From an uncultured Bacteroidales bacterium (lineage in GTDB: Bacteria; Bacteroidota; Bacteroidia; Bacteroidales; ML635J-15), in NCBI GenBank assembly GCA_964511665.1, contig CAZEHA010000016.1, forward strand, positions 242-64,241: DNA of 64,000 nucleotides. Reading direction: 5' to 3'. The translations under genes were made by a program, and so were the position numbers. Every line of letters begins with the position of its first letter. The stretch's first letter is position 1. This document shows positions 691 through 33,016 of this stretch, piece by piece. Below the pieces are notes generated by a model, which was not told the origin of the DNA, made no database searches, and saw only the letters and a list, made by a program, of their open reading frames with translations.

Positions 691-1187
691 TGCTCCAGGG
701 ACCAGGCATATTTATTGAAATCAAACTCGACCCGTATCTGCAGGAGTTTTTGCGTGGATACTTCGACCAAAACGGAAACGTATTCTACTGGCCAAAAAAC
801 CACGATATCACACGTAGATTTATCAGCCTGCTTAGGCCAAAGTCAGAAAATATTAAATACACGAAACCTGATAACGGAGATTGGTCTTTCAGGGTCGATA
901 TACCCTATAATACTGCAGGGCGAAATCCATTCATAGTTAACTACCTATCTCGCGATAATAACAAGCTGCTTGCAAAGCGAATCAAAGAATTTGCCGACAT
1001 GGTTTTTCACGAAGATGTAATTGCACATCGTATTGCCGGATGGGAGTATAAAGACTGTGTTTTGATATTTATGGATGACTATAATATCAGTAGCAAATAT
1101 TACGATAGATTGTTGAAAGACTTTCAAAGGCTAAGAAATAATCTTCGTCAGAAAAAATATCGAAAAAAAATACACTCATTTAATTAG
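690..1187 (+). CDS. Phage protein with basic C-terminus; candidate late-transcription activator
   Basis: 165 aa ORF, C-terminal RLRNNLRQKKYRKK, just upstream of the structural module; function inferred from position only. Confidence 0.55.
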   Translation: MLQGPGIFIEIKLDPYLQEFLRGYFDQNGNVFYWPKNHDITRRFISLLRPKSENIKYTKPDNGDWSFRVDIPYNTAGRNPFIVNYLSRDNNKLLAKRIKEFADMVFHEDVIAHRIAGWEYKDCVLIFMDDYNISSKYYDRLLKDFQRLRNNLRQKKYRKKIHSFN

Positions 1188-1229
1188 TCTTATTTGTCTG
1201 TTTGTAACAACACGTAACAAAATGAAGAA

Positions 1230-1607
1230 ATGGAAAAAATAATTTGTTCAAAAATACAATACGCATTCAGCTTTGAAGTTGAACAGGTTTTAGATAATCA
1301 AATCGAACTAAAACCGGGTTATAGTTTCAAACAAATCAATATAAATAACGCAGTGTATTCGCGAAGCTCAGATGATGCTGATGCAGGTCGGCTATTAATT
1401 GAAAAATTAGAAGTAAAGGGAAGTATAAACTTTACCGATTTCAAATTCTTGTCATACTATCCTGTTGTATTGCAACTACAAACCCACGATGGCGAATTTA
1501 TAGCAATGGGTAACACTGATACACCTGCAAGGTTTGACTCGGGGTTTAATAGAAATAACCACTGCGAATTAACCTTCAAAAGAGCGTCGTGCATGCTAAA
1601 ATCATAA
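1230..1607 (+). CDS. Phage hypothetical protein
   Basis: 125 aa ORF with A-rich initiation region, co-oriented with neighbours. Confidence 0.65.
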   Translation: MEKIICSKIQYAFSFEVEQVLDNQIELKPGYSFKQININNAVYSRSSDDADAGRLLIEKLEVKGSINFTDFKFLSYYPVVLQLQTHDGEFIAMGNTDTPARFDSGFNRNNHCELTFKRASCMLKS

Positions 1608-1633
1608 TGTGTTGGATAACTGACAGTTATAAC

Positions 1634-1669
1634 TGTCTTTTTATATAAGATAAATCGGGAATATTATTG
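1634..1669 (+). promoter_or_regulatory. Putative phage late promoter (TGTCTTTT-N20-TATTATTG)
   Basis: One of 7 intergenic copies with the same 28-nt offset; precedes the protease-capsid-tail operon. Confidence 0.65.
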
Positions 1670-1685
1670 TGCAAACAATTGACCG

Positions 1686-2546
1686 ATGTCGCAAATTCTT
1701 AACGAAATTCTTAAAGGGAGCAACTTATACTGCAAGCGCAGCGACTTTGTTTCGTTTCTCTATACAATTTTCGAGAAAACCGGCCAGCAACCCAGCCAAA
1801 AAACGGCCTATCCCCTATTATATATAAATGGTGCCGGTGAAATTAATACTGATCCCAAGGCCGAATCCGGCAAAAAAATTGCCATTGTGCCTATTTCTGG
1901 TCTCATGACCAAATATGGCGACTGGTGGACTTATGGAATAGCCGAAATTGGGGAATACATTCTCGATCTGTATAATTCTGCCGATATAGAAGGCATAATT
2001 GTTAAATACGATACCGGTGGCGGAACCATGGGCGCAATTATCGAACTGGAATCCATATTCGGAATGCGCAATAAACCGGTTTTCTCACTTATCGACAGTA
2101 ATTGCTATTCGGCCGGAATTTATACTGCAATGTTTACCGATGGCATTTTTGCAACAAACTCGAAATGCGGTGTTGGTAGTGTTGGCGTTATGACACGCAT
2201 TATAGACGATAGCAAGCTTCTCGAAAATTGGGGTATTGTGGTCCGCGAAGTATATCCCCCCGAAAGCAAATTCAAAAACAAAGCAATCAACGAAGCTATT
2301 GCCGGCAATGATGCATTGTTGATTGAGGAAATATTGTCGCCGATGGCAATTATGTTTCAGAATGCCGTAAAAAACGCCCGGCCAAACCTCGATATGTCGG
2401 TTGAAGGCATAATTGAGGGTAAAGATTTCTTTGCCGACAAGGCCGTAGATGCAAAAATGATTGATGGCATTAAAACCATGCCCGAAATGATTCAGCACGT
2501 ATTGAACTACACTACAGGCAAAACCATTCAAAATGTTCTCACCTAA
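1686..2546 (+). CDS. S49 (SppA/ClpP-fold) prohead protease
   Basis: IAIVPISGLM, DTGGG, CYSAGIY (catalytic Ser region), VGSVGV motifs; directly upstream of capsid. Confidence 0.85.
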   Translation: MSQILNEILKGSNLYCKRSDFVSFLYTIFEKTGQQPSQKTAYPLLYINGAGEINTDPKAESGKKIAIVPISGLMTKYGDWWTYGIAEIGEYILDLYNSADIEGIIVKYDTGGGTMGAIIELESIFGMRNKPVFSLIDSNCYSAGIYTAMFTDGIFATNSKCGVGSVGVMTRIIDDSKLLENWGIVVREVYPPESKFKNKAINEAIAGNDALLIEEILSPMAIMFQNAVKNARPNLDMSVEGIIEGKDFFADKAVDAKMIDGIKTMPEMIQHVLNYTTGKTIQNVLT

Positions 2547-2559
2547 ACTGTAATAAATT

Positions 2560-4587
2560 ATGAAAAAACGATTCATTGCGTTACTTGCACGTCTCGGATT
2601 CACCGATAAAGCAAAAAACAACCAGCTCACCGCTGAAGAAACCAGCCAATTGAACGCCGAGTGCGTGAAAGAACTTGGAATGGAACTGAAAAAGGTAATG
2701 GAAAAAATTACCAGTGAACAAAACAACCCCGACAGCGAAATGTTGTCGCAAATTTCGTCATTGTTGGCCGAAAACACCGACACTGAAGAAGATGACGAAG
2801 ATGATGACGAAACCAATGCCGAAGGCGAAGAGACTGAAGACGAAGACGACGACGACGAAGAACCCGAAGCTAAGAAAAAAGGCCAGAAGAATCTTCTAAA
2901 AAAAGTGAACAGCATTGTCGGTGCCAACAAAAAAATGCAACAGCAGATAAAAACCCTTGCCGAAAGGCAGGAGCCTGCTACCCCCAAAAGGGTTCTGGAA
3001 GGAAAGAAAATTGTTGCTTTTGGCGGAGCCCACACCGCTTCGCATCTGTTTGGCGTTACCGGTGCAGCTTTCGAACTGGCAAAGCCGTGGAATGCACGTG
3101 CCGCTAAGCACACTGCCCCCACCGAACGTTATTCAGAAGACGAACGCGAAATGTTGTTCCGTGATTTCAATGCCTACGGCAAAGAATTGAGCTCGCGTTA
3201 TGCACATCTGCATACCAATGGATTGTTGGGTGTTTTGGCTGCCGGCAACATGGATTACTCCGAACTCGAAAGTGACCTCGGAGCATATTACCGCGTACGT
3301 CGTCAGGATGCTATCATCGACCGCATTCGTCAGCTGCCCTCGATTGCTTCCATTTTCCCGGTTGTTTACAACATTCAGGACGAACAGGCAATGGTTGATG
3401 TTTTCGCCAGCGGAAGCTTCACCCAGGCATATCAGGCCGGCCGCGTTTTCTCGGGTGGTTTCGCATTCGAACCCCAAAAAGCAAAGGTAAAAGATGTGAT
3501 GTTCAAGTATCTGTTCAGCGACCTGAAAGACCTGGAAACTCAATACATCGGTTATCTGAATCAGGAAGGTTCCGACCCGATTAAATGGGCTTTTATTGAA
3601 TGGATCATGATGAAATGCGCCATCATTCAGCACAACGAAAAAGAGTTGCGCAGGGTGAAAGGCTACCGGGTGGAATCAACCACAGGTAAAGCTGCACATT
3701 TCATGTATGCCAGTACTGGATTCCTTCACACTGTTGAAGATCAGTACGAAAAGGAAAACCGCGTGTACGTATTCCCCACGAAACGTGCCTACACAAAAGC
3801 AACAATTCTCGACTATGTTCGCGCATTTGTTGAAGATGTGTTCATGATGAAGGATAATGTTACCGAAATATCCGAAATGCCCCTGTTCATGAACGCCAAA
3901 CACGTTCCATGGTTCAAGGAAGCATACCGTGAAAAATACGGTGAGCAAAGCGATTTTCAGGGCGAAAAAATGGAAGTGAAAGACTATCCAATGCCCAAAA
4001 TCGTTGCTATCCCCAACATGGGCGCCACACGCTTCGACATGTTCATCATGCCCGAAAATGCAGTAGAAATTCACGAAAACAAACCAGGCGAATTTTACGC
4101 ATACTACTTCCAGCGCGACCTCGAAAACCTGATGGTTTGCACCTACGGTAAAGAGGGAACATTCACATTCGGAGGCCGCAAACATGCAACCCGTGCTGCT
4201 CTTGAAGCTTCGAATGGTGCCGACACCAACATTTTCCGGAACAATCCGACTACCTTGCTTGCCGATGGCGCCACCACCTGCAATGCACTGGTAAACGAAA
4301 TGTTCGAAACTGTGAACAATACCGGCGCCACTGCCATCACCGACATTGTTGGTGCAAAACAGGGCAATGTGTACAAAATTCTCTGCGGAGGTACCACCAA
4401 TGCAACTACCATTGCAAAGACAAACAAATTCTCCGAGCTGACTGCAGCTTATATTCCCACCGCCGTTGGCGACTATCTGAAAGTAATCTACGATCCCGTT
4501 GACGAAAAGTTCCTCGAACTCGAACGTAAAGTGGGTGGTACTATCGCCGTGAACGCCAGTGTTAAAGCACCGGAATACGTGGCATAA
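2560..4587 (+). CDS. Major capsid protein with N-terminal acidic/coiled scaffold-like region and C-terminal extra domain
   Basis: 675 aa, follows the protease, poly-D/E tract in the N-terminal ~130 aa, followed by a strong hairpin. Confidence 0.75.
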   Translation: MKKRFIALLARLGFTDKAKNNQLTAEETSQLNAECVKELGMELKKVMEKITSEQNNPDSEMLSQISSLLAENTDTEEDDEDDDETNAEGEETEDEDDDDEEPEAKKKGQKNLLKKVNSIVGANKKMQQQIKTLAERQEPATPKRVLEGKKIVAFGGAHTASHLFGVTGAAFELAKPWNARAAKHTAPTERYSEDEREMLFRDFNAYGKELSSRYAHLHTNGLLGVLAAGNMDYSELESDLGAYYRVRRQDAIIDRIRQLPSIASIFPVVYNIQDEQAMVDVFASGSFTQAYQAGRVFSGGFAFEPQKAKVKDVMFKYLFSDLKDLETQYIGYLNQEGSDPIKWAFIEWIMMKCAIIQHNEKELRRVKGYRVESTTGKAAHFMYASTGFLHTVEDQYEKENRVYVFPTKRAYTKATILDYVRAFVEDVFMMKDNVTEISEMPLFMNAKHVPWFKEAYREKYGEQSDFQGEKMEVKDYPMPKIVAIPNMGATRFDMFIMPENAVEIHENKPGEFYAYYFQRDLENLMVCTYGKEGTFTFGGRKHATRAALEASNGADTNIFRNNPTTLLADGATTCNALVNEMFETVNNTGATAITDIVGAKQGNVYKILCGGTTNATTIAKTNKFSELTAAYIPTAVGDYLKVIYDPVDEKFLELERKVGGTIAVNASVKAPEYVA

Positions 4588-4593
4588 GTTAAC

Positions 4594-4617
4594 GGCTCCC
4601 GGCTTCTGTCGGGAGCC
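4594..4617 (+). other. Strong stem-loop after the capsid gene (mRNA stabiliser or partial terminator)
   Basis: GGCTCCCGGC-TTCT-GTCGGGAGCC with no clean U tract. Confidence 0.6.
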
Positions 4618-4650
4618 ATTATTGTTTCACCATTAAAAAAATAAAATAGC

Positions 4651-5658
4651 ATGAAAAAGCAAAACGCAAAACAGATAGCCTGGGCACAAAACAAAGTGCA
4701 AAATGCAACCCGAAGGTTGTTAACCAGGTTTGTAGTGATACTTACCCTTATTTTCGTTCTCCCGGCAGGTGTAATGTTTGCCATTGGCGACGAAAAGAGT
4801 GGCGAAATCGGAGCTGCAATAACAATAACCGGGGTTGGTCTGATGGCCTCTATCGGCAATATTGATGATGCGACTGCATCCGATAAATCGGGAAAATTGG
4901 TAAAAGCTAAGATGTGGATTATTTCGGAAGAAAGTTACGACGATTCTCAGCCTTTCCCTGCTCGTAATAATAGGCAGCGTGGCACAATACCGCTAAAAGC
5001 CGGAGAGTATTGGAAGTACATTAAAGCAGTTGAAGACAGTCTTGAACCGCTAAGTAATGGAGAATCAGCCGATGGAAATGATAAGATAGGCAACACACTA
5101 ACGTTTGTTGTGGGAGGCCTTGATGACAAAATTCAACAGCTTCTTGAGGGTGGTTTAGGCAAAGGTTTCTATATAGTTTGGGAAATCTGCGCAACCAACA
5201 CTAAATACCTTGGAGGCAATGGATGTAAAGCAATGCGATTAACAAAATTTGAGGGTGGGGCTGGTAAAGACCGCACAGGCTACACGCTAACATTTGAGAA
5301 CCAGTGTGGGGAACTATATTCCATCTACACCGGTACAATTAGCACCGAAGCCCCCGACACCGTTGCAGCCGACGAAACCGAAATAACGCTAACTTCAAAC
5401 TGCGCATACCAGCTTACTGATGGTTCGGTATCGGCAGTAGTGATTACCGGGTTCGATGGAGTTACCAGCGCCGATGTTGGCAGGATCCTGTCAATTTATG
5501 GTTCAGGTGGTACTTATCCCAGCACCATTACCGCGGCCAACGACTTCATTCTTACCGATGGAGAAACATGGACTGCAAGTTCGGGAAAACGCCTCGATGT
5601 TAAGGTTTTCAAAGATGGAGCCAGCTCCTACAAATTCATTGAGTTGAGTAGGGTATAG
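4651..5658 (+). CDS. Probable major tail tube protein with N-terminal hydrophobic leader
   Basis: Lies between the capsid and a -1 frameshift gene pair; beta-rich core (NTLTFVV..GYTLTFE); hydrophobic segment FVVILTLIFVLPAGVMFAIG. Confidence 0.6.
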   Translation: MKKQNAKQIAWAQNKVQNATRRLLTRFVVILTLIFVLPAGVMFAIGDEKSGEIGAAITITGVGLMASIGNIDDATASDKSGKLVKAKMWIISEESYDDSQPFPARNNRQRGTIPLKAGEYWKYIKAVEDSLEPLSNGESADGNDKIGNTLTFVVGGLDDKIQQLLEGGLGKGFYIVWEICATNTKYLGGNGCKAMRLTKFEGGAGKDRTGYTLTFENQCGELYSIYTGTISTEAPDTVAADETEITLTSNCAYQLTDGSVSAVVITGFDGVTSADVGRILSIYGSGGTYPSTITAANDFILTDGETWTASSGKRLDVKVFKDGASSYKFIELSRV

Positions 5659-5683
5659 TGGTTGTGTTTTAATTGGGTTACGG

Positions 5684-5710
5684 AAAAGCTCTCCTCGGGG
5701 AGCTTTTTTT
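5684..5710 (+). terminator. Rho-independent terminator
   Basis: AAAAGCTCTCC-TCG-GGGAGC followed by T7. Confidence 0.8.
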
Positions 5711-5711
5711 A

Positions 5712-5747
5712 TGTCCTTTGCTCAAAGTTGCTTCAAATCTAACTTTG
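5712..5747 (+). promoter_or_regulatory. Putative phage late promoter (TGTCCTTT-N20-TAACTTTG)
   Basis: Exact TGTCCTTT plus a perfect TAnnTTTG, immediately after a terminator. Confidence 0.75.
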
Positions 5748-5783
5748 AGCATTATCATTAAATTAAACTAATACATTGCTATC

Positions 5784-6377
5784 ATGAACAAACTCACTCC
5801 CGACCAAATCAACGACATGGTTGTTGCCAACGAAACAGCCGACGAAACAATATTTCAAGCCGATCTGAAACTTTACCGGCGTATGTTTCCGCACTCCAAA
5901 ATCATTAACGATCTCGAACGTGCTAACGAATTTACCCGGAAGGCACTCGATGGACGCATGCTCAAGGAGTTATTGAAAGAAATTTGCATCACCACAATTC
6001 ACGAGAACCGGTTGAAATTAACCATGAAAGCTCCGAAAATTGCCAAAAACGACAAAACCAACAAAACCAACACGCAACCAGATCCTGCCAACAATGAGGT
6101 AAGCGATAAGCTTAAAGCTGCTCAACAGGAACTACTTGCAATTGAAGATATTGCTACCATGAAGTACAATAAGTGCAAATCGTTATTGCTCCGGCTTGGT
6201 TTAAAGGTTGCTAAAAACGATACAGCAACCATTATGGCAGCGCTTAACGCACACAAGCAGCAGTTGCTTGACGCCATGCCTAAAGCAGACACTATTGCAG
6301 AAGAAGTAAGCAATGATGCTGCACATAATGCAGATGCTAATTTAGAAGGAGAAAAAAAAAGCGCGGACCAAGAATAG
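5784..6377 (+). CDS. Probable tail assembly chaperone (gpG-like, short product)
   Basis: Follows the tail tube gene; ends just after an A9 slippery run whose -1 frame is open into the next ORF. Confidence 0.55.
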   Translation: MNKLTPDQINDMVVANETADETIFQADLKLYRRMFPHSKIINDLERANEFTRKALDGRMLKELLKEICITTIHENRLKLTMKAPKIAKNDKTNKTNTQPDPANNEVSDKLKAAQQELLAIEDIATMKYNKCKSLLLRLGLKVAKNDTATIMAALNAHKQQLLDAMPKADTIAEEVSNDAAHNADANLEGEKKSADQE

Positions 6378-6838
6378 AGTTCCCAGCCATACCTTGGGAG
6401 AATACACACGATCGTAATGTACAACTGTGCATGGTGCTATATAACGACCGTGTGTTTTCTTTTGAGAGAGCTGCAAGCATCGAACACATAATAGACGCCA
6501 ACCCCAGTGAAGATAACGTAAAAGAATTGGTTAAGTGGAACAGGCGCAACCGCCAGGCACAAGAGGAACTGGTTAGCTACAATACCCACTCTCGATTCCT
6601 ATTTGTCCATCCACTTACTAAAGACTACCAAACAGCTAACGAATACATACTGTTGAAGCAGAATCAACCCAATAAGTTTTTTGATGAAGTAAGCAATGCG
6701 AAGAAGTATATCGAAAGGTATAAGAGCCTGCTGAAAAATAAGAAATACAAGGACCAGGAAGAGTATGTAAAGTTCTCCGGGCATTTGGCTAACTACGAAC
6801 ACAAGCTCGAAATGATGCAGACAGTACTTAATGCCTAA
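6350..6838 (+). CDS. Frameshift extension (gpT-like); ORF track calls 6431-6838
   Basis: Open -1 frame from the slippery site to TAA at 6838; ATG 6431 lacks an A-rich initiation region. Confidence 0.65.
   Translation, partial: RKKKRGPRIEFPAIPWENTHDRNVQLCMVLYNDRVFSFERAASIEHIIDANPSEDNVKELVKWNRRNRQAQEELVSYNTHSRFLFVHPLTKDYQTANEYILLKQNQPNKFFDEVSNAKKYIERYKSLLKNKKYKDQEEYVKFSGHLANYEHKLEMMQTVLNA
6351..6360 (+). other. Programmed -1 frameshift / slippage site GAAAAAAAAA
   Basis: 0-frame GAA AAA AAA AGC; -1 frame reads KKRGPRIEFPAIPWENTHDRNVQLC-MVLY with no stop until 6838. Confidence 0.7.
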
Positions 6839-6863: not shown

Positions 6864-6887
6864 AAGCGCACGCTGTGCGCTTTTTTT
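6864..6887 (+). terminator. Rho-independent terminator
   Basis: AAGCGCAC-GCT-GTGCGC followed by T7. Confidence 0.75.
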
Positions 6888-7120: not shown

Positions 7121-7156
7121 AGTCTTTTTGTAGTGTTTTGCCTGAAAATAGATTTG
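7121..7156 (+). promoter_or_regulatory. Putative phage late promoter variant (AGTCTTTT-N20-TAGATTTG)
   Basis: Same 28-nt offset; perfect -7 box; upstream box has 2 mismatches to TGTCCTTT. Confidence 0.55.
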
Positions 7157-7167
7157 CAATAAAAAAA

Positions 7168-7803
7168 TTGAACACAATAAAAGTTTATAATTTAAGCAAT
7201 CTACCCGTTGCAAACCTGCAAGACTTTAACGAATTGCAAGAAGATTTTAAAATATTTAATCCCGAAAAGAATAAAAAACTGCAAGATATTATTATTGACA
7301 GGGGTTTTAAATATGCGTTCAAAGCATGGCAGGGCGAAGACGGCAAGTTGTGGATAATTGATGCGCACCAACGAAAGGCTGCACTTATTGAACTGCAAAA
7401 AAAAGGGTATCATGTTCCGCCAATTCCTTACGAACTTATTTATGCCGAAAACAAACGCGATGCTGTAAAAGAAATTGCTGCATACAATAGTGAGTTTGCC
7501 GATAAAAATCCTGATACAATTTTATTCCAACAATATGATATTAGTGTTTCAGAATTAGAAGAATTTGAACTTAAGCAGATATCACTCGAAATTGACGAAA
7601 ATGTAAACTGGCACGAACTCGAAAACATTTCGACAAACCAACATCCACGCGACAACCAATATCGTATTAAATATGAGATTGTATTTGATAACGAAGGCCA
7701 ACAGGATAAGTGGTACAACTTCCTGAAAATGCTTAAGGACAGATATGTTGAATGCGAAACCATTGCCGAACGGATTACCAAATACATCGAAGAGCATGAG
7801 TGA
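7168..7803 (+). CDS. ParB/Srx-fold protein
   Basis: IIDRGFKYAFKAW..LWIIDAHQRKAAL ParB N-domain motif; probable start is TTG 7168 after an A-run (track start 7138 lies upstream of the -7 box). Confidence 0.75.
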   Translation: MNTIKVYNLSNLPVANLQDFNELQEDFKIFNPEKNKKLQDIIIDRGFKYAFKAWQGEDGKLWIIDAHQRKAALIELQKKGYHVPPIPYELIYAENKRDAVKEIAAYNSEFADKNPDTILFQQYDISVSELEEFELKQISLEIDENVNWHELENISTNQHPRDNQYRIKYEIVFDNEGQQDKWYNFLKMLKDRYVECETIAERITKYIEEHE

Positions 7804-8914
7804 ACGCAGCATGATACAACGTGTTGAGCTCGAAATGAATGTTTACGAAGCAGCCATTGAGCGAACTCGCGAAATCATTAACTCGCACGACCATGTTTTT
7901 GTTAGTTTTTCAGGCGGTAAAGACAGCCTCGTTGCTTTGTGCATAGTTGAAGAGGTTTATCGCCAAATGGGCATTAGCGATAAAATAAATGTCATTTTCA
8001 GGGATGAAGAGATTATACCTGATGATGTTGTGAATTTTGTTCAGGAAAAATATCATTCAGGTAAGTATAACTTTGGTTATTTCTGCCTGCAATTAAGGTC
8101 AGAAAAATATATACTGGGTAACAAATATGAATATATTCAATGGGATAAAAACCGCAATCATATACGTCCTATTCCTGAATTTGCCATTACCGACTGGAAC
8201 AATGTGTATGACCAATATAATTCTGGACCAATAACCACCAACTATGTAAAAGGTCGTAAATGTATTATAACCGGTATTCGCGCCGATGAAAGCCTGATGC
8301 GTTATCAAGGCATTGTTGCCAAAAAGAATAAACCACATGTGGCTGCCAGCATTGATGCCGATATTTGGATGGGGAGAATTATCTACGATTTTTCTGAAAA
8401 AGATATATTCAAATATTTGTACGATAACAAAGTGCCATACTGTACAATCTATGATATGCAGATGTTCAATGGTGAGGCAATGAGGGTTAGTACTCCGTTG
8501 CATGCTGAATCGGCAAAGAAGTTGTATAAGTTAAAAACAACATACCCAACATTCTACGATCAGATACTGGCTATATTCCCCGACATCGAACTACAGGCAC
8601 GGTACTACAACGACTTAGACCGATACTCGATAATGAACCGCTACGAACACTCGTTTAAAGGCATTGTTGACTATATAAATGAAAATGTTGATGAATCAAT
8701 GCGAAACATTGCTCTGAAAAGGGTTGCAGATGCACGTAAAACAAGAATTAACAATATCAAATCTGGGCATGGTGTATATGGTGGATATCCAGTATTGTAT
8801 GTTTTTAAAACAATAATTAATGGATCGTACAAACGTAAGCTATTACCTAAAAAAGACAGTAGTGTAACAGCTGTTGAAAAAGAATATGAATTGTGTTCAA
8901 ATAAACCAGTATAA
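7796..8914 (+). CDS. PAPS-reductase-family PP-loop protein (IbrA/YbdN-like)
   Basis: VSFSGGKDS PP-loop, FRDEE, TGIRADES..R, IYDFSEKDIF, MRVS; ATG 7796 overlaps the upstream stop (ATGAGTGA). Confidence 0.85.
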   Translation: MSERSMIQRVELEMNVYEAAIERTREIINSHDHVFVSFSGGKDSLVALCIVEEVYRQMGISDKINVIFRDEEIIPDDVVNFVQEKYHSGKYNFGYFCLQLRSEKYILGNKYEYIQWDKNRNHIRPIPEFAITDWNNVYDQYNSGPITTNYVKGRKCIITGIRADESLMRYQGIVAKKNKPHVAASIDADIWMGRIIYDFSEKDIFKYLYDNKVPYCTIYDMQMFNGEAMRVSTPLHAESAKKLYKLKTTYPTFYDQILAIFPDIELQARYYNDLDRYSIMNRYEHSFKGIVDYINENVDESMRNIALKRVADARKTRINNIKSGHGVYGGYPVLYVFKTIINGSYKRKLLPKKDSSVTAVEKEYELCSNKPV

Positions 8915-8916
8915 AT

Positions 8917-8947
8917 TTTGAAAACCGGAAACTAATTTTTATCTTTA
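8917..8947 (+). promoter_or_regulatory. Possible housekeeping-type Bacteroidetes promoter (TTTG-N19-TATCTTTA)
   Basis: -33/-7 like boxes with canonical spacing in a 49-bp gap before the HNH-like gene. Confidence 0.4.
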
Positions 8948-8963
8948 TGAACAGTTACAGACT

Positions 8964-9425
8964 ATGGTAATGAAAGAATACAACGGATTTAGTGGAGCTG
9001 AAAGAATGATGGTGCAGGCCATTATGAACGACATGCAAAAGCGTGGTATTATTTCATGGTCTGACAAATCATGTACAATTTGTGGCAGTAAAGGGGGCGA
9101 GATTCAGGCACATCTCGAAGACTACAGTAATGTTTTTGACTTTCACCCTATCTGCATCGAATGTCACATGAAGCTCCATATGAGGTTTAGGTTTCCGGGC
9201 TATTGGATTAAGCATCTGGTTGATGTTAATAACGGATATGTTTCACATCCGTTTAAAAATTCTTCAGAGTGGTTCAAATCGAAAAAGGGTAAATTTAGTA
9301 ATCCCGAATTCGACAATCTTGATCCGAAATTAATTGGCAATGAATGGTATCATAAGTTGTCACTAAAACAAAAAAACCTAAACAAATTCAGGCATTATGG
9401 AGACCATAAAGAAACAACCGATTAG
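8964..9425 (+). CDS. HNH-like Zn-binding protein / nuclease
   Basis: CTIC...AHLEDY...PICIECHMKLH pattern. Confidence 0.6.
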   Translation: MVMKEYNGFSGAERMMVQAIMNDMQKRGIISWSDKSCTICGSKGGEIQAHLEDYSNVFDFHPICIECHMKLHMRFRFPGYWIKHLVDVNNGYVSHPFKNSSEWFKSKKGKFSNPEFDNLDPKLIGNEWYHKLSLKQKNLNKFRHYGDHKETTD

Positions 9426-9909
9426 TAATATCGAATGGCGCGATGTTCGAGAGCTAAGCGCAAATGACTACAACCCCAATGTAGTATTAACACAGGAACT
9501 AAAACTGCTCGAATTCTCAATACTGAAAACAGGATGGATTCAACCCTTACTGATATCGGGAACCGACGTTATTATTGATGGTTTTCACCGTTATTGGCTA
9601 AGCCAGAATAGTAAATATCTTATTAAGCAATTCAATTATCATGCTCCTTGTGCAATTCTAAATATAAGTGAAGCTGAAAGAATGTTGCTTACCGTTAGAA
9701 TTAATAGGGCTAAAGGAAACCATGTTGCTGCTAAAATGCACGAACTGGTTACTAAACTGGTTATGGAACTTGCCATTAGCAAAGAAACAGTTGCATTAGA
9801 GATTGGAGCCAGCACAATGGAAGTTGATTTGCTACTTCAGGAAAATGTATTCACAAAATTGGATATTAAAAACCATAAATATTCTAATGCTTGGATACCT
9901 AAAAAATAA
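9397..9909 (+). CDS. ParB-like protein (IbrB/YbdM-like)
   Basis: ANDYNPN, ELKLLEFSI..GWIQP, IIDGFHR, TVRINRAKGNH. Confidence 0.85.
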   Translation: METIKKQPISNIEWRDVRELSANDYNPNVVLTQELKLLEFSILKTGWIQPLLISGTDVIIDGFHRYWLSQNSKYLIKQFNYHAPCAILNISEAERMLLTVRINRAKGNHVAAKMHELVTKLVMELAISKETVALEIGASTMEVDLLLQENVFTKLDIKNHKYSNAWIPKK

Positions 9910-10029: not shown

Positions 10030-10056
10030 AGAAACCCGGGTTGCAGCCGGGTTTCT
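10030..10056. terminator. Hairpin / possible bidirectional terminator in the leader of the SymE-like operon
   Basis: AGAAACCCGG-GTTGCAG-CCGGGTTTCT, A-rich on the left and T-rich on the right. Confidence 0.6.
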
Positions 10057-10099: not shown

Positions 10100-10372
10100 A
10101 TGAGCAAAAGTACAAAAGAAAAACGAATTATTCTACGGCATGAAGATTTCGTTATTGAAACGGTCAGTGCATGGAGCACTCAAGGTATTAAATTTAATAA
10201 AGGCAATATCAATATTTTGAAATATGCCTTTATGTCGCAGGTAGCATGGGCATTATACCGAAAACAATCTCTACCCGAAAGTATCAAAAACCAGTATCTG
10301 AGTTATCTGCAGACAAGTCTATGGCCAATGCCTCTAAGAATTGACCCAACCCAGCTCTATTTCAAATACTAA
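10100..10372 (+). CDS. Hypothetical moron protein
   Basis: 90 aa ORF closely spaced with downstream genes. Confidence 0.55.
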   Translation: MSKSTKEKRIILRHEDFVIETVSAWSTQGIKFNKGNINILKYAFMSQVAWALYRKQSLPESIKNQYLSYLQTSLWPMPLRIDPTQLYFKY

Positions 10373-10376
10373 GAGT

Positions 10377-10571
10377 ATGAAAAACGAAAGAATAATAAAA
10401 GTGTCTTCGATAACAAGAGTTTACGGAACACAATCATATTATAGAAATGGATATAGCAAGGTTCCTTTTATTCGATTAGCCGGTAGATACATTGAAAAAA
10501 TAGGCATTAATATCGGCGACTCTGTGAAAGTTGAATTTATCGATAACCAAATAATTATTTCAAAAATATGA
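10377..10571 (+). CDS. SymE-family / AbrB-fold small protein
   Basis: PFIRLAGRYIEKIGINIGDSVKVEFIDNQIII fits the SymE pattern P-x-I-x-L-x-G-x-x-x-E-x-x-G-x-x-x-G. Confidence 0.7.
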   Translation: MKNERIIKVSSITRVYGTQSYYRNGYSKVPFIRLAGRYIEKIGINIGDSVKVEFIDNQIIISKI

Positions 10572-11925: not shown

Positions 11926-12552
11926 GTGATAGAATCATTTCGCAAAGTACCCATTGAAGCACTTAAGGAATTTCGACAGACCGGAATTTCGAAGTACATC
12001 CCGAACGACCTGCAACGATACATCCAACAAATTGACAGGGCAATAGAATTGTACCGATTCGACGGTAATATTTCGCGTGTTGCCGGTAAGTTAATCGCAG
12101 AGTTTGCCCAGGATGATTTAAGTATGAGCACGGCCAGAAGTCGTATTTACGATGCAATCAACTTGTTTCACCTGAACAATACGGTAAAAAATGTTGCTTG
12201 GGACAACTACTACGCCGATAAGATGGAAGATCTTGCAAAGCTCTCGATTGCAGCCGACAACATTACCGAAGCCCGCAGATGCTACGAAAAGGCACACGCC
12301 TTCAGAACATCACACAACGAAAACGACTACGACCCTGATAAACTGAGACCTGTCGAAAAAATTATTTCTCCCGAAGTAACTCCGCAACGATTGGGTTTGC
12401 ATGGCGACAACTTGAATAAAATGTGGATTAAAGCACAGCTATTCATTAACGAATTGCCAATTGAAGACAAAGAAAAAGCGCGACTTCTCAGAGAAGCCTC
12501 ACAAAATATTAACCTGCCAATAGACGTAGATCATGAAGACATTCCAAATTGA
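11926..12552 (+). CDS. Helical phage protein overlapping TerL (terminase small subunit candidate)
   Basis: 208 aa; overlaps the TerL start; LSMSTARSRIYDA helix. Confidence 0.55.
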   Translation: MIESFRKVPIEALKEFRQTGISKYIPNDLQRYIQQIDRAIELYRFDGNISRVAGKLIAEFAQDDLSMSTARSRIYDAINLFHLNNTVKNVAWDNYYADKMEDLAKLSIAADNITEARRCYEKAHAFRTSHNENDYDPDKLRPVEKIISPEVTPQRLGLHGDNLNKMWIKAQLFINELPIEDKEKARLLREASQNINLPIDVDHEDIPN

Positions 12553-14245
12553 CACCAACCGGTTTGAACTGGAATATTATTCTGTTCTCCAGCATCATGC
12601 ATTACTGGCCGATACGCAAAACCTGTTTGGCGAGATTGGCAGGGGTGCCGGTAAGAGTACCCACATAATGACCCCCAGAATTGAGCGTGTAACCTACGAT
12701 ATGAAGCGCAGTATATCGCTGCTATTGTGTGCTACCTATACCTCATTGCTCGACAATATTATTCCGGCAATGACTGAATACCTTAATAAAAACTACCGCC
12801 GTGGCATTCATTACGAATATGGCAAAAAACCCCCAAGCCATTTCCTGTTGCCTTACCGTGATGTTCCCGACTGGAAACGCACACTATCATTTGCATGGGG
12901 TTCGGTAGTTCGGTTCGGTTCTATCGACCGGCCGGAATCTATTCTGGGCTCCGACTTTGTGCATGTGTTTACCGATGAACTTTTGCGGATAAAAGAAACC
13001 GCATTTGTTGAACGGGTGCTCCCGACACTTCGTGGCAACCGTACCCTGTTTGGTAATTCGCCCTATTACGGTGGAATCACCGGCACATCATCAACACCCA
13101 ACTTTGAGAACGACTACGACTGGTGGCTGGCTCAGGAACAAAACACGAATCGTGAGCTGATTGATTATATTATGAGTATTGCTTTAAGGGTGCATCACGC
13201 TAAGTACTACGAAAAAACATCGGAGTCGGCCAAAGAAATCGAAAAGTATAGGCGGTTCATCAAGCGATGGGAAGAAAGGCTGGTAGAATGCAGGCAAGGA
13301 CAAACTACCTACTTAAAAGGCAGCTCGTTTACCAACCTGGCAGTATTAGGACTTGAATACATTACTAACCAGTACAAAGGTTCGGCAGCCAATATCGAGA
13401 AATTTAATCTATCGATTCTCGGGATTCGGCCAAAAAAAGTAGGAGAAATGTTTTTCGGCAGGTTTGGTAAACAACATATTTATACCGACAGCTACGATTA
13501 TGGCAACATCGACAGTATAGACCGGCATCTGTTCGAAGAAAAAGGCAGTAGTATAATTGCCGATGGACATAGCAAGACTTCGCTTGACCTGAAATACTGC
13601 GACCCCAATAAACCGATTATTGCAGGCTTCGACCCCGGGCACTTTATGAGTATTGTATTTGCGCAGGAAAATACGAAATATGGCAAGGCTGAATTGAGGG
13701 TTTTTAAAAATATGTATGTTACCCATCCGGAACAACATTTTGAACTGGCGCAAAAAATTGCATTGTTCTTTAAAAACCACAAGCGCAAGAAAATATTTTT
13801 GTATTATGACCGTGCAGCCAATCAGCGGAAGAAAGTGTATGAGAACAACCAAAGCGGAAAAACCGATGCACGTATTCTGCAGAAGCATCTTAAAGATTTA
13901 GGATGGGAAGCCGAACTTAAGGACCTTGGGCGCGAAACAATTTATCACAAGTTGCATTATATTTTGTTGAATATTCTTTTTGGTGAAAGGCAATCCAATA
14001 CTCCGCGTATTAAAATATGCCAATACGAGTGTGAGGAACTTGTTTCGAGTATTTACATGAGCCCTCTTAAGCGATTGGGTGGAGAAATATTCCTCGATAA
14101 ATCGAGTGAAGATAAACTCGACCTCGAAGATCAGGCCTTGTGGAGTACCCAAATTGCAACCTCGTTGATGTATATGCTTTACGGGTTATATCAGAAGTAT
14201 ATGCCAGGCGATACTATTGAATACTCGCATTATTCCGGCTTGTAG
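12533..14245 (+). CDS. Terminase large subunit
   Basis: Walker A GRGAGKST, Walker B VHVFTDE, motif III-like TSS, RNase H-fold IIAGFDPG and YYDRA. Confidence 0.85.
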   Translation: MKTFQIDTNRFELEYYSVLQHHALLADTQNLFGEIGRGAGKSTHIMTPRIERVTYDMKRSISLLLCATYTSLLDNIIPAMTEYLNKNYRRGIHYEYGKKPPSHFLLPYRDVPDWKRTLSFAWGSVVRFGSIDRPESILGSDFVHVFTDELLRIKETAFVERVLPTLRGNRTLFGNSPYYGGITGTSSTPNFENDYDWWLAQEQNTNRELIDYIMSIALRVHHAKYYEKTSESAKEIEKYRRFIKRWEERLVECRQGQTTYLKGSSFTNLAVLGLEYITNQYKGSAANIEKFNLSILGIRPKKVGEMFFGRFGKQHIYTDSYDYGNIDSIDRHLFEEKGSSIIADGHSKTSLDLKYCDPNKPIIAGFDPGHFMSIVFAQENTKYGKAELRVFKNMYVTHPEQHFELAQKIALFFKNHKRKKIFLYYDRAANQRKKVYENNQSGKTDARILQKHLKDLGWEAELKDLGRETIYHKLHYILLNILFGERQSNTPRIKICQYECEELVSSIYMSPLKRLGGEIFLDKSSEDKLDLEDQALWSTQIATSLMYMLYGLYQKYMPGDTIEYSHYSGL

Positions 14246-14246
14246 T

Positions 14247-14282
14247 TGTCCTTTAGAAAATCAAAACCACAAGCGACATTCG
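14247..14282 (+). promoter_or_regulatory. Putative phage late promoter (TGTCCTTT-N20-GACATTCG)
   Basis: Exact TGTCCTTT; degenerate -7 box at the same offset; precedes the portal operon. Confidence 0.6.
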
Positions 14283-14286
14283 TACT

Positions 14287-14607
14287 ATGGAAATAATCAG
14301 CGGAATAGAAGCCATACAAACCATGCGAAACATGCGCCATAGCGGTGTGCACTTTGTGATGCATCACCTCACATGGTCAGAATCTCGACAAACAAGCAAC
14401 GGTTTGCGTGTGGTAAACAAGGCGCGACTTCGTCCGGCACTTCCGCAAGAGTTCAGCAACGACATTAACCCTGATGAACTCCTACCCTACTACGACATTG
14501 AGAACGAATCGGAAGGCATGTGCCACAAAATATTAATCCGCAAAGTGGCATATCCGCCCGACTATACATTAAAAAAAGTTAATTGGCATGACAACTACAA
14601 CGATTAG
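14287..14607 (+). CDS. Phage hypothetical protein
   Basis: 106 aa ORF between TerL and portal, overlapping the portal start. Confidence 0.65.
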   Translation: MEIISGIEAIQTMRNMRHSGVHFVMHHLTWSESRQTSNGLRVVNKARLRPALPQEFSNDINPDELLPYYDIENESEGMCHKILIRKVAYPPDYTLKKVNWHDNYND

Positions 14608-16090
14608 CCGTTATGGTAACTTTGGTGTTGCCGAAGATATAACCGGCAAAAAAATGACATTTCAGGTACTATCTACGTCGGATGCCCAGAGTATCGAAGA
14701 TGACATTGCAGAATTCTCGAACTATGGTTTCGTAGGCGATAGGTTTAACTTCGATGGTTTTACAATTGCAACCAACGGTGAGCGCAATACATTGCCCGAT
14801 GAACTGAGGGTTTTGGTTAAGAATAACCCTATTCTGCCGGAGATTCTCAAAAAGCAAGTGCGCTTCCTATATGGTTATGGACCGTATCTTTACGATGAAG
14901 ACATAAGTGATAACCTGCTTAAGCGCAAATGGCACGGGCGCACCGAACACCCCGAATTCTTTATGTGGCTCGAAAGCTGGACTAAGAATGGATTGCGCGA
15001 TAACTACGAAACCTATTTCAAGAAAGTAATCATGAACTATTACTACACCGAAGATTACTTTTCGAAACACCTTCACAACGTCGGCCGTCGCATTGGTATG
15101 TTCCCGATCCGTGGTCTCGAACATATATGGACTACCCGGGCACGACTTGCATCCGACCAGCTCATTCCCAATATCAACGAGTTGAAAGATGAAGATTTAA
15201 ACTTCGTGGTTGTGGGCGATTGGCTGAATATGTACACCCAACGGCTTGAAGCTTACGCACGCTTCCGCGAAAGCAACCCGTTTGCCGACGAAAACTGTGT
15301 GAATTATGTGTGTGATGCCAGCTTTGGCGATATGATTTACAGCAGCCCAACTTATTACTGGGGCTTAAAAGATTGGATTAAAGGCTCAAATTTGAACCCG
15401 AAGTACATCAATTCATTTTTGAAGCATTCGTTTGGCGCTAAGATTAACTGCATCATTCCCCACACCTGGTTTGTTACTATCGAAAATAAGTTTCGTGCAT
15501 TATGCGAAGAAAATCATGATAGAGATCAAGGAGGCATTGCACTGATTGAGAAGTATGAAAATGTTAAGCTGATAAATGATTCAAACGAGCCATTGCCCTA
15601 TAACGAATCGATGGTGCAACAGGCCGTTGATTATAAAATAGAAAGCCTGATGCAGGTAATGAGTGGCGAAGGTAAGAATCAGGGTAAGATATTCTTTAGT
15701 CGTGCCTTCCGTGCTCAGGAAGGTATTGAGTCGTGGGACTTTAAAGAAATACCTACCAAGTATGGCGACTACATCGACGCCATTACCAAGGTTGACGAAC
15801 GCATGGTAAAAGTTATTCTGGCCGGTAAAGGCCTTGACCCCGCCATCTCGAATGTTGGCAGCGAAGGAATATTCAACAACTCCGGGGCACAGGTATATTA
15901 TAACTACCTGGTGTATCTCAGCAGCCTCACACATGCCGAAGAATACTGCACCCAGGATATTAATTTTGCGCTTCAGGTAAATTTCCCACAAATCTATAAT
16001 CAGGGCTTGCGTGTGGGCTTATATCGCAATGTGCCACAGCGTTTAGAGGAAACCAGTCCGGCAAATCGTCCCTCAAATAACATTCAATAA
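14588..16090 (+). CDS. Portal protein (probable)
   Basis: 500 aa, downstream of TerL; LYGYGP, MSGEGKNQGK, GLDPAISN segments. Confidence 0.7.
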   Translation: MTTTTISRYGNFGVAEDITGKKMTFQVLSTSDAQSIEDDIAEFSNYGFVGDRFNFDGFTIATNGERNTLPDELRVLVKNNPILPEILKKQVRFLYGYGPYLYDEDISDNLLKRKWHGRTEHPEFFMWLESWTKNGLRDNYETYFKKVIMNYYYTEDYFSKHLHNVGRRIGMFPIRGLEHIWTTRARLASDQLIPNINELKDEDLNFVVVGDWLNMYTQRLEAYARFRESNPFADENCVNYVCDASFGDMIYSSPTYYWGLKDWIKGSNLNPKYINSFLKHSFGAKINCIIPHTWFVTIENKFRALCEENHDRDQGGIALIEKYENVKLINDSNEPLPYNESMVQQAVDYKIESLMQVMSGEGKNQGKIFFSRAFRAQEGIESWDFKEIPTKYGDYIDAITKVDERMVKVILAGKGLDPAISNVGSEGIFNNSGAQVYYNYLVYLSSLTHAEEYCTQDINFALQVNFPQIYNQGLRVGLYRNVPQRLEETSPANRPSNNIQ

Positions 16091-16091
16091 C

Positions 16092-17243
16092 ATGGCAACA
16101 GTAATTCCATTCAAAACAGGCGAAGATATTAAAGGCTCGCTGAGTCAGATTAATATTGATTTCGAGATTGATAACGTGCAAAACAGCTTTATTAAAGCCA
16201 GCGATTTGATAAAAGATATGATTTCGCCGGCTATGTGGCAACTTATGATTGACCACTACAACAGCGACAACTATCAGGCAACACCAGAACCGGTTGAAGA
16301 AGGTGAGGAAGCCGACCCCATGACTGCAGTTTATGCGCTGCTCGATACGCTGGTTAAAAAGGTTCAGGATCCACTCGCTAATTTTGGAATGGCCGAACAT
16401 TTCGTATGGCTGATGCTTCGCATTAGCAACGGTTCGGTTACGGTTGCCAAAAGTCAGGACGAAACTACAGCATTTAAGTATCTCACCGACGAAGCTAAGG
16501 AACAGCTAATTGAAACAGCATACATGTTTTGCAACCAGTTGGTTGATTTCATCAACGAAAATGCAACGACATGGACAACCTGGGCAAAAGAAACACCCTA
16601 CTTGCTCAATGCCATTGTGCGCTACGGTGATACATTTTATAAGTGCAACCAAGCCCACACCAGTGGCGAAACATTTGATGAAACAAAATGGACTGAATGC
16701 GAAGAGCACGAAGTAATATTCTGGCAGTGGTTAGAATCGGAACAATATGCCGAATTGAATAACGAAATATTCACGAGCTACAAAGACTTTAATAAGTATT
16801 TCGACATCAACCGTTCGGCATACTTCTACTACAAGCTGCGCCATATTATTAACCGTGTGAAAGATGAAGAAATTGAGCCGCGAGTGTTCGAAGCAGTTAC
16901 CACCGACCAACTTCGCACTAAACTAAAACGTGCAACGGCTTATTGCTGCATGGGTATAGTGTGTTACGAATGGGATTTCAATTCACTGCCGGCAAACATT
17001 CGCCGGGTGATATCAAACGAAATGGAAGCCTATGGGCATAAAAAAACCGATATTGATTTTGTTAAAAATAAAATATCGGAATCCTACAAACAAAAGGCGC
17101 TCAAAATGTTTGCCGAACTCGAACGCGAAGTGGCAATGCTTGCCGAAGAAAAAGAGAAAGCCGAAACCGGAGTAGCACCGGAAGCTACCGAAGTGTACGA
17201 AACCCAATTTGACGAAAACAAACCATACGCATCAATGCTATGA
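16092..17243 (+). CDS. Head-tail adaptor-like protein (DUF6712-like) with inserted CBM5/12-like module
   Basis: Follows portal; internal WAKETPYLLNAIVRYGDTFYKCNQAHTS...W motif. Confidence 0.55.
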   Translation: MATVIPFKTGEDIKGSLSQINIDFEIDNVQNSFIKASDLIKDMISPAMWQLMIDHYNSDNYQATPEPVEEGEEADPMTAVYALLDTLVKKVQDPLANFGMAEHFVWLMLRISNGSVTVAKSQDETTAFKYLTDEAKEQLIETAYMFCNQLVDFINENATTWTTWAKETPYLLNAIVRYGDTFYKCNQAHTSGETFDETKWTECEEHEVIFWQWLESEQYAELNNEIFTSYKDFNKYFDINRSAYFYYKLRHIINRVKDEEIEPRVFEAVTTDQLRTKLKRATAYCCMGIVCYEWDFNSLPANIRRVISNEMEAYGHKKTDIDFVKNKISESYKQKALKMFAELEREVAMLAEEKEKAETGVAPEATEVYETQFDENKPYASML

Positions 17244-18208: not shown

Positions 18209-18209
18209 T

Positions 18210-19168: not shown

Positions 19169-19177
19169 TGATGTGTT

Positions 19178-21865: not shown

Positions 21866-21867
21866 TT

Positions 21868-21903
21868 TGTCCTTTCGCAAATAGAGCGTTTGCCATATTT
21901 TCA
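21868..21903 (+). promoter_or_regulatory. Putative phage late promoter (TGTCCTTT-N20-TATTTTCA)
   Basis: Exact TGTCCTTT, 28-nt offset; precedes the lysis and tail-tip genes. Confidence 0.65.
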
Positions 21904-21915
21904 CAATAAAAAACT

Positions 21916-22200: not shown

Positions 22201-22202
22201 TC

Positions 22203-25920: not shown

Positions 25921-25921
25921 T

Positions 25922-30651: not shown

Positions 30652-30765
30652 AGCGTGTAGTAGTTATAGTGCAAATTTATAAAAATTAAAAACTATTACA
30701 GTAATGAATTTGTAATTTTTTTGCACCCCTATTGTTTTTTTCGAAAACTTAACCTATTTTTGTAG

Positions 30766-32994: not shown

Positions 32995-33016
32995 TACAAA
33001 ACATTTCCTTTTAAAG

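Follow-up and report, generated by a model that had tools for sequence, protein, structure and literature searches.

IbrA and IbrB of Escherichia coli ECOR-9, together with their K-12 paralogs YbdN and YbdM, are among the closest described relatives of two proteins encoded by the four-gene cassette with which this work is concerned. The cassette lies at positions 7121-9909 of a 64,000-nucleotide stretch from an uncultured Bacteroidales bacterium (GCA_964511665.1, contig CAZEHA010000016.1), hereafter referred to as the window. Trans-activation of the prophage eib genes by IbrAB is cited in passages of PMC6008420 and PMC4541368, which also name IbrA and IbrB as possible virulence regulators in phages of Flavobacterium and Macrococcus. 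PMC5874904 carries the SEED label 'coactivators of prophage gene expression', which PMC4490671 repeats, while excerpts of PMC9068703 present ybdNM as repressed by CitR and do not address its function. Elsewhere, phage genes of this kind receive sulfur- or host-metabolism labels, at least in the portions of text that mention them (Kieft et al., preprint 10.1101/2021.01.05.425418; PMC10434257; PMC11318856; PMC12323421).

Comparable protein combinations are found in Dnd, Ssp and BrxP, systems that act on DNA according to the pertinent sections of PMC10853773 and PMC12839542. According to the former, DndC requires an Fe-S site of three cysteines plus a cysteine dyad, and host IscS is able to replace DndA. 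Excerpts of a 2026 preprint also report a defence cluster that pairs a 3'-phosphoadenosine-5'-phosphosulfate (PAPS) reductase with Arc and ParBc proteins. The full-text literature searched yielded no biochemical study of the phage cassette; older predictions may exist.

The cassette consists of four + strand genes, designated A to D. Our preferred reading, on which we place slightly less than even weight, is that they form one unit of a widespread phage module for ATP-dependent, DNA-directed covalent modification by a non-sulfur chemistry. A DNA-acting enzyme system, rather than a plain regulator, is suggested by the conservation of the PP-loop in B, the methyltransferase-type ParB domain of A, the linkage to transferase genes and the recurrence of the cassette before terminases. 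An earlier note on this DNA had described the four genes and their motifs correctly: IIDAHQR (A), SGGKDS and GIRADES (B), CxxC, HLEDY and CxxCH (C), and NDYNPN and DGFHR (D) are all present in the translations.

The PP-loop enzyme and its partners

Gene B (7796-8914, + strand) encodes a 372-aa protein of the IbrA/YbdN type that matches PF01507 (PAPS_reduct) in Pfam with an E value of 7e-10 and PHROG 2302 with an E value of 5e-92. BLASTP aligns 275 aa of it with E. coli YbdN at 29% identity (E 6e-26). This alignment ends near residue 259, leaving the C-terminal 110 residues of B unaligned with the DUF3440 region of YbdN; for this tail, Pfam at E<=0.01 gives PF01507 alone and MAFFT places a few residues in common with the tail of YbdN. 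The structural model of B (predicted local distance difference test, pLDDT, 85.7) has FAD synthase/FMN adenylyltransferase, CysH and CysD as nearest fold neighbours (E 1e-6 to 1e-5), with TilS, NcsA and TtuA ranking behind them, and its helical C-terminal third found no fold match in the structure search. A direct sequence search of the PDB returned the PP-loop stretch of NcsA only (E 0.057).

The motif SGGKDS is exact in 78 of the 78 full-length relatives of B from the fetched loci, and an alignment of 35 diverse homologs contains 55 invariant columns, with FRDEE, QWD and GxRxxES all invariant. Such conservation argues that B is an enzyme and not a scaffold. As judged from its sequence, B is an ATP-using PP-loop enzyme of the PAPS-reductase-like clade, with predicted catalytic activity.

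The Pfam name PAPS_reduct invites another interpretation, namely that B is a CysH-type PAPS reductase, encoded by an auxiliary metabolic gene that boosts sulfate assimilation in the host. Papers that label such phage genes metabolic agree with it, at least in the passages concerned (PMC10434257, PMC11318856, PMC12323421 and the preprint by Kieft et al., which counts Bacillus phage PBC5). A protein of phage PBC5 is 49% identical to B. We give this interpretation next to no credence, as it is contradicted by alignment with E. coli CysH: neither B nor its relatives have anything opposite the catalytic tail RECGLHEG, so that the ECGLH cysteine lacks a counterpart, and the PP-loop is complete (SGGKDS) in B and degenerate in CysH. 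The interpretation also fails to accommodate the fact that B is locked in a cassette with ParB-like and HNH-like genes. Furthermore, when 401 genomes of the host phylum were sampled, the host included, a match at E<=1e-40 was found in only 2, which fits a mobile accessory gene. The host genome (3.48 Mb, 102 contigs) has a single copy of B. A contig scan of genomes for B gave 3 clear orthologs among the matches listed, the others being mostly different PP-loop enzymes, and was not used for counts.

The earlier note had offered thiolation as one possible outcome of the predicted modification, and Dnd/Ssp-type phosphorothioation, or some other thiolation with sulfur supplied by the host IscS, deserves consideration. 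B belongs to the PF01507 superfamily along with DndC, SspD and BrxP, its pairing with ParB-like proteins recalls DndB/DndC, and IscS can stand in for DndA according to the relevant section of PMC10853773. Nevertheless, we regard a sulfur-based reaction as very unlikely. When B was run through PADLOC, the matches were weak: BrxP with E 6.8e-7, covering the PP-loop region only, and DndC with E 1.8e-3. B has a single near-conserved cysteine column (74/80 sequences, with Ala or Pro in the rest), which aligns with a histidine of CysH; in A no alignment column reaches 30% Cys, and D has one cysteine column (49/66). The lack of an invariant cysteine in A, B and D argues against a persulfide or Fe-S route, and the Fe-S cysteines and dyad described for DndC in PMC10853773 are not matched by B. 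In addition, neither a desulfurase nor any DndD/E or SspA/B/C-like gene was found among the window open reading frames (ORFs) up to position 44456 that were scanned with Pfam, in agreement with the earlier note, which had seen no such gene. Thiolation is not supported by this evidence.

Gene A (7168-7803, + strand) encodes 211 aa and has no match in Pfam. It can be divided into an N-terminal ParB/Srx domain (residues ~1-135), a low-confidence linker and a conserved C-terminal AC domain (~165-211). In a model generated with AlphaFold2 (mean pLDDT 76.5), residues 10-128 match ParB-family and sulfiredoxin structures by two methods. Foldseek placed Noc first (E 1.5e-5), followed by KorB, ParB, Srx and SbnI, and VIA-align gave sulfiredoxin with Z 9.5 (89 residues, root-mean-square deviation 2.9), KorB with 8.5 and the ParB N-domain with 8.3. 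D65, H67 and R69 are invariant across 27 sequences and include the conserved active-site arginine of the ParB/Srx fold. When the sequences of A, C and D were searched directly against the PDB, nothing significant was returned. An uncontrolled prediction of a complex of B with A scored 0.00 and speaks neither for nor against binding.

Residues 1-135 of A are 55-67% identical to the N-domains of longer proteins that end in a DNA methylase (PF01555/PF02086); a DPPY motif is visible in the alignment. In A, the methylase is replaced by the AC domain, a strand-helix-helix of ~50 residues with the consensus IxYxIIFDxExQQxxWxxFLxxLKxxYP...T...R...FI. The AC domain is specific to the IbrAB-type cassette and aligns with the C-termini of gp78 of a Bacillus phage and gp5 of phage Salgado. 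A possible assignment of the AC domain as ribbon-helix-helix found no support: Pfam gave scattered chance matches on 49 members, no PDB profile fell below E 0.05, and VIA scores reached a Z of 2.0-2.7 only. Two separate AC-domain ORFs lie upstream of B or adjoin it in loci L008, L021, L025, L027, L035, L047 and L048.

Gene D (9397-9909, + strand) encodes a 170-aa protein of the IbrB/YbdM type, in which a ParB/Srx domain carrying the motifs NDYNPN, IDGFHR and RINRAKG is followed by a helix-turn-helix (HTH). It matches PHROG 2159 (E 2.4e-56). A full-length alignment with YbdM gives 34% identity (E 5e-29), and identity to the corresponding genes of Arthrobacter and Bacillus phages is 46-55%. Its profile matches structures of ParB, Spo0J and Noc (E 2.9e-6) across both the N-domain and the HTH. 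Together with the fold of A and the kinship of A to methyltransferase N-domains, this profile links the cassette to DNA.

Gene C (8964-9425, + strand) encodes an HNH-like, putatively zinc-binding protein of 153 aa. Its sole family match is PHROG 2340, 'endonuclease' (E 6.6e-5), and Pfam gives no HNH match. In an alignment of 46 sequences, C37, H50, Y54, H68 and H72 are invariant, and C40, E52, C64 and C67 nearly so. The resulting pattern, CxxC-x9-HxEDY...CxxCHxxxH, combines a putative zinc site of the Cys4 type with candidates for the catalytic His and the C-terminal metal-binding His of HNH nucleases, and is accompanied by an N-terminal YNGFS motif. The best PDB profile match, with a non-significant E of 0.93, is the HNH domain of McrA, with which the motifs line up; the nearest named Atlas clusters, which provide a lead only, are HNH (0.88-0.89). 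The C family is large and mostly stand-alone, with 763 representative clusters at E<=1e-10. Two longer members, P0208 (732 aa, joined to DUF2779 with E 1.2e-37) and P0195 (406 aa, with two C-like stretches), are not informative.

A cassette of this composition might also encode a counter-defence or host take-over enzyme that leaves phage DNA untouched and targets nucleotides, tRNA or protein. ParB/Srx folds include kinases and NTPases, as indicated by the fold matches and by passages of PMC5512222; the fold neighbours of B belong to a superfamily in which most enzymes act on tRNA or metabolites; and the transferases that accompany the cassette in related loci resemble enzymes for proteins or small molecules. 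We see only a slim chance for this explanation, which is difficult to reconcile with the high identity between the ParB domain of A and that of DNA methyltransferases, with the ParB-type HTH of D and with the HNH-like partner, which points to nucleic acid.

A recurrent phage module

A word-based protein search detected 687 relatives of B at E<=0.001. In GenBank, tblastn matches were distributed over 142 phage records (Mycobacterium 60, Streptococcus 21, Arthrobacter 12, Flavobacterium 10, Bacillus 8, and others), and at least 229 stretches of IMG/VR contain a relative. The gene neighbourhood was surveyed in the best 80 of these 229 or more IMG/VR loci. Cassette parts were counted with hidden Markov models built from our own alignments and clusters and searched against all six-frame ORFs; this recount replaces an earlier BLAST-based one that undercounted the parts, except for the large terminase subunit (TerL). 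Counts refer to the 56 loci in which B is flanked by at least 800 bp on its upstream side and at least 2500 bp downstream, leaving aside 24 loci with short flanks and three named phages.

The survey, a check that the earlier note had suggested, indicated that A, B, C and D recur as a module across the 56 loci: D homologs are present in all 56, the AC domain in 51 and C homologs in 48. Two further families were detected. One, of ~130 aa, is found in 32 loci and consists of GNAT acetyltransferases; all 13 members sampled were assigned to GNAT in Pfam (best E 7.6e-12; example, L010:2885-3283). The other, of ~200 aa, is found in 16 loci and consists of class-I methyltransferases (PHROG 11826, E 1e-77; weak Pfam methyltransferase matches in 6 of 6 sampled members; example, L035:8858-9463), with a motif-I-like VLDLGASTG and a consensus that lacks DPPY. 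The two families are strict alternatives, as they co-occur in none of the 56 loci and in none of the 80. C accompanies GNAT in 30 loci and the methyltransferase in 14, and stands alone in 4; GNAT without C occurs in 2 loci, the methyltransferase without C in 2, and 4 loci have none of the three. Hence, C tracks the transferase genes, which are almost always accompanied by it. The suggestion that the HNH protein might serve as an optional weapon against unmodified DNA does not fit this distribution, in which C behaves as a core part.

The genes are usually arranged as A-B-D-x-C-TerS-TerL or as A-B-x-C-D-TerS-TerL, with x denoting the transferase and TerS the small terminase subunit. The window contains neither a GNAT nor a methyltransferase gene detectable by hmmsearch at E<=1; its cassette belongs to the 'C alone' type (4 of 56 loci), with the order A-B-C-D also found in locus L011. 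By gene content and family matches, it is an ordinary member of a widespread phage module, in a minority four-gene form.

The gene order of the cassette is the same in cultured phages of Bacillus, Arthrobacter and Mycobacterium. Arthrobacter phage Salgado encodes gp5 (ParB-like), gp6 ('PAPS reductase'), gp7 (ParB-like), gp8 (methyltransferase), gp9 (TerS) and gp10 (TerL). In Mycobacterium phage Pipefish, the series is gp1 (ParB-like), gp4, gp5 (ParB-like) and gp6 (TerL), and in Bacillus phage 055SW001 it is gp78 (ParB-like), gp79, gp80 (methyltransferase) and gp83 (ParB-like), at the right genome end. A ParB-domain DNA methyltransferase fusion of the PHROG 498 type lies downstream of the cassette in L033 and L046. 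Genes for Amidoligase_2 (8 loci) and GGACT/AIG2 proteins (7 loci) are also seen within a few kb of the cassette, for instance at L013:12780-13604 (- strand) and L026:472-930 (- strand).

If these parts work together on DNA, a tentative scheme can be drawn. A and D, as NTP-binding and DNA-binding proteins of ParB/Srx fold, would place the machine on DNA, A by means of its methyltransferase-type ParB module and D through its ParB-type HTH. C, acting as an HNH-like zinc protein, would nick or open the DNA to give access. B would then adenylate a DNA target, which would be a phosphate in the backbone or at a nick or, with lower probability, a carbonyl group of a base. AMP transfer to phosphate or sulfate oxygens is the reaction of the clade of B, as represented by CysD and FMN adenylyltransferase. 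A non-sulfur nucleophile would displace AMP from the adenylated target, and in most relatives the added group would be finished, or capped, by the GNAT or the class-I methyltransferase, a step that the four-gene form of the window would lack. In this scheme we infer that DNA is the substrate, in which order the steps follow, what is produced and how the phage benefits, for example by restriction evasion. The proposal of DNA modification made in the earlier note thus survives in part. It is favoured by the PP-loop kept in 78 of 78 relatives, the methyltransferase-type ParB domain of A, the transferases of most relatives and the recurrence of the cassette before unrelated terminases; its thiolation variant is not.

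Several considerations weigh against DNA modification. Within the literature searched, a modified base or backbone has been shown for no phage with the cassette. The accessory transferases resemble enzymes for small molecules or proteins (PrmA, FtsJ) and not DNA methylases, and the acceptor need therefore not be DNA. ParB/Srx folds, judging from the fold matches, also include small-molecule and protein kinases. The predicted nuclease identity of C is based on a motif and on weak profile matches, and the window lacks the GNAT or methyltransferase step. Lastly, as far as the citing passages of PMC6008420 and PMC4541368 go, experiments on the family have produced a single result, namely that IbrAB activates prophage eib genes in trans.

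The latter result is the foundation of an alternative that we consider unlikely but worth weighing with care: the ParB-like proteins might bind near late promoters and, together with B, act as co-activators of phage or prophage expression that switch on the downstream packaging and virion operon. B and D are homologous to YbdN and YbdM, the paralogs of IbrA and IbrB, for which activation of eib genes is cited in PMC6008420 and PMC4541368 and echoed by the SEED label in PMC5874904. D has an HTH; KorB, one of the ParB-family fold matches of A, is a transcription factor; and the cassette is found just before terS and terL, where late regulators often sit. However, co-activation leaves unexplained the strictly conserved ATP-pyrophosphatase site, as well as the HNH-like protein in 48 of the 56 loci and the mutually exclusive GNAT or methyltransferase in a like number (48/56). 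One might also consider that activation in E. coli is secondary to modification of DNA or protein.

Terminase linkage, transcription unit and prophage surroundings

Among 50 loci with at least 4.5 kb downstream of B, a recognised TerL starts 1029-2525 bp (median 1714) 3' of B in 31. This figure comes from the BLAST-based count and is a lower bound, as cluster representatives were scanned and some of the first large ORFs have no family. Such is the case of the 666/668-aa ORF that follows the cassette in L047, L048 and L062, to which no family was assigned and which is comparable to ORF 12533-14245 of the window. The TerL proteins near cassettes belong to unrelated families: Terminase_3, Terminase_6, GpA and PHROGs 2, 9, 979 and 30251. 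C homologs accompany Terminase_3, Terminase_6 and GpA types, the latter in L012, L013 and L053, an indication that C belongs to the cassette and not to one packaging machine.

In the window, ORF 12533-14245 (+ strand) probably encodes the large terminase. It has no Pfam or PHROG match and is recognised by a Walker-A-like motif, GRGAGKST, and by the name terminase borne by the Atlas clusters nearest to it (0.99). The preceding ORF (11926-12552), which shares 20 nt with it, is a candidate for the small subunit, and C lies 2.5 kb upstream of this putative subunit. The location of the cassette upstream of terminase genes, as put forward in the earlier note, holds in the sense that a probable TerL is found downstream; the two are not contiguous, with ORF 12533-14245 beginning 2.6 kb after D and five small ORFs lying in between. 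One of these ORFs (10341-10571, 76 aa) shows a SymE_toxin/MazE-like (AbrB-type) match below the Pfam cut-off (E 4.5e-6) and matches PHROG 20906.

The proximity of terminases raises the possibility that the cassette is a packaging accessory, in which the ParB-like proteins and the HNH-like protein recognise or process pac/cos sites or DNA ends for the terminase while B modifies the ends. HNH proteins that adjoin terminases are said to be packaging helpers in cos phages, reportedly according to work by Kala et al. in 2014. Besides the consistent distance to TerL in 31 of 50 loci, it can be argued that the D homolog of phage Pipefish lies directly 5' of TerL, with no small subunit annotated. We find a role in packaging decidedly unlikely. 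The cassette is accompanied by TerL of unrelated families, including, in the C-bearing loci L012, L013 and L053, GpA types with an endonuclease domain of their own. In the window, D is not contiguous with the terminase genes, as five ORFs and a hairpin lie in between, and pairs of the YbdNM type exist in chromosomes without any terminase. Moreover, the same position is occupied by many phage genes of the 'end of early region'.

The layout of the locus is compatible with common transcription of the four genes. The start of A is a TTG at 7168, where an identical database protein and ten close homologs all begin, and B most likely starts at the ATG at 7796, the position at which 33 of the 35 homologs aligned also begin. 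Counted from these starts, the overlap is 8 nt between A and B and 29 nt between C and D, while B and C are separated by 49 nt. All four genes are full length when aligned with their relatives. Upstream of A there is an AT-rich gap of 250 bp and a terminator-like hairpin at 6864-6882 (+ strand), with an 8-bp stem, 5 GC pairs and the T-run TTTTTGTG, which closes gene 6431-6838. Directly 3' of D, before a small ORF at 10100, a GC-rich 10-bp hairpin is found at 10030-10056. A scan scored it as terminator-like on the - strand, and its T-run on the + strand is weak; it may be the end of the cassette unit. With a hairpin before A and another after D, the cassette looks like a transcription unit of its own.

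A promoter-like pair, TTTG-N18-TAGATTTG, is located at 7127-7156 on the + strand, 12 nt upstream of the TTG start of A. As a mere pattern match, it has one counterpart on the + strand of positions 1-32000, at 5717. It fits the Bacteroidota -33/-7 consensus and is silent on timing. The earlier note had placed the cassette behind a variant of the promoter motif of virion genes; such a late promoter could not be established. The motif that the note probably meant, TGTCCTTT, occurs in 5 copies in the window (5712, 11111, 11874, 14247 and 21868), all on the + strand. This number is ordinary, as it was reached in 11 of 100 shuffles; what is striking is the placement, each copy lying in an intergenic gap 40-72 nt upstream of a phage ORF start (the one at 21868, before a small ORF, was judged by eye). 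TGTCCTTT could represent a promoter, or a -33 element, particular to the phage. The leader of the cassette carries only GTCTTTTTG (7122-7130), which includes the TTTG of the -33 region. The exact 11-mer TTTTTGTAGTG has two sites in the 64 kb, one before A (7125-7135) and another (30757-30767) before ORF 30909-31442, which adjoins the integrase gene; the two leaders may share a promoter type. Beyond these items, a k-mer search of the cassette leader against other phage leaders found no convincing promoter word in common.

The left half of the window is a prophage. An S49 head protease gene (1686-2546) and a 675-aa ORF are found upstream of the cassette, and terminase, tape measure, lysin and tail genes downstream of it (1-6838 versus 11926-29140). 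The tape measure gene is located at 19178-21865 and the amidase gene at 22203-23000; a Bro-N gene (- strand) comes next in order, followed by the integrase gene (31673-32890, - strand) and a tRNA-Pro gene (33016-33091). As the window begins 241 bases into the contig, the left end of the prophage may be cut off. On the host side, the product of gene 38690-41983 is a gingipain-type peptidase (C25) whose C-terminus is a Por secretion sorting domain, suggestive of a Bacteroidota host. A search of GenBank phages for nearly identical DNA found none. The stretch is present solely in DNA runs of sludge and wastewater metagenomes, with no RNA run listed as containing it.

The cassette beside known systems

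A bolder and distinctly more doubtful claim can be made about the product: the cassette might generate an undescribed DNA mark, consisting of a PP-loop-driven, sulfur-free substitution at a backbone or nick phosphate, or at a base, which would be acetyl- or methyl-capped in most phages and uncapped here. If so, the phage genes now labelled as cysH metabolic genes or IbrAB regulators would be parts of an unrecognised epigenetic and anti-restriction system, and the effect of IbrAB on E. coli prophage genes would be a consequence of the DNA mark. Such a mark would be relevant to the arms races between phages and hosts, to the way in which viral 'metabolic' genes are counted and to the function of ybdNM in E. 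coli. In the literature searched, the family is assigned either to sulfur metabolism or to regulation, and its sequences speak against PAPS reduction. A concrete hypothesis is provided by the linkage, before terminase genes, of two ParB-like proteins and a PP-loop enzyme with an HNH-like protein and an acetyl- or methyltransferase. Because cultured carriers include phages of Bacillus subtilis, Mycobacterium smegmatis and Arthrobacter, the hypothesis can be tested with ordinary tools.

As the best structural neighbours of its N-domain, CysH, CysD and the eukaryotic-type FMN adenylyltransferase place B in the PF01507 clade. B differs from CysH in the absence of the catalytic cysteine tail, and from all three enzymes in its extra helical C-domain and its DNA-related gene context.

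A likeness can also be drawn between C and the HNH proteins of the HK97 gp74 type, reportedly terminase-associated in cos phages: C is small, HNH-like and encoded close to terS and terL in many related loci. Unlike them, C has no Pfam HNH match, possesses its own YNGFS motif, tracks the IbrAB cassette and its transferases, and is also found with GpA terminases.

The ParB-domain DNA methyltransferase fusions of PHROG 498, of which Bacillus cereus Bce_0392 is an example as cited in a passage of PMC5512222, resemble A in its N-terminal 135 residues. The difference lies in the C-terminal part, where A has the AC domain in the place of the methylase.

The Dnd system (ParB-like DndB and DndC), the Ssp system (SspB nickase and SspD) and BrxP of type 4 BREX share with the cassette the combination of a PAPS-reductase-like PP-loop enzyme with a ParB-like protein, a nicking protein or both. 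This parallel is a formal one, and lends its support to the preferred reading by analogy. The cassette departs from Dnd and Ssp in that B lacks the Fe-S and dyad cysteines and scores weakly in PADLOC, that its partners are an acetyl- or a methyltransferase, and that it is phage-borne and near terminase genes.

As for IbrA/IbrB and YbdN/YbdM, B is homologous to YbdN and D to YbdM, and ybdN and ybdM are adjacent and overlapping. Yet the phage cassette adds to this pair A, C and usually a GNAT or a methyltransferase, none of which flank ybdNM, and it is placed before terminase genes.

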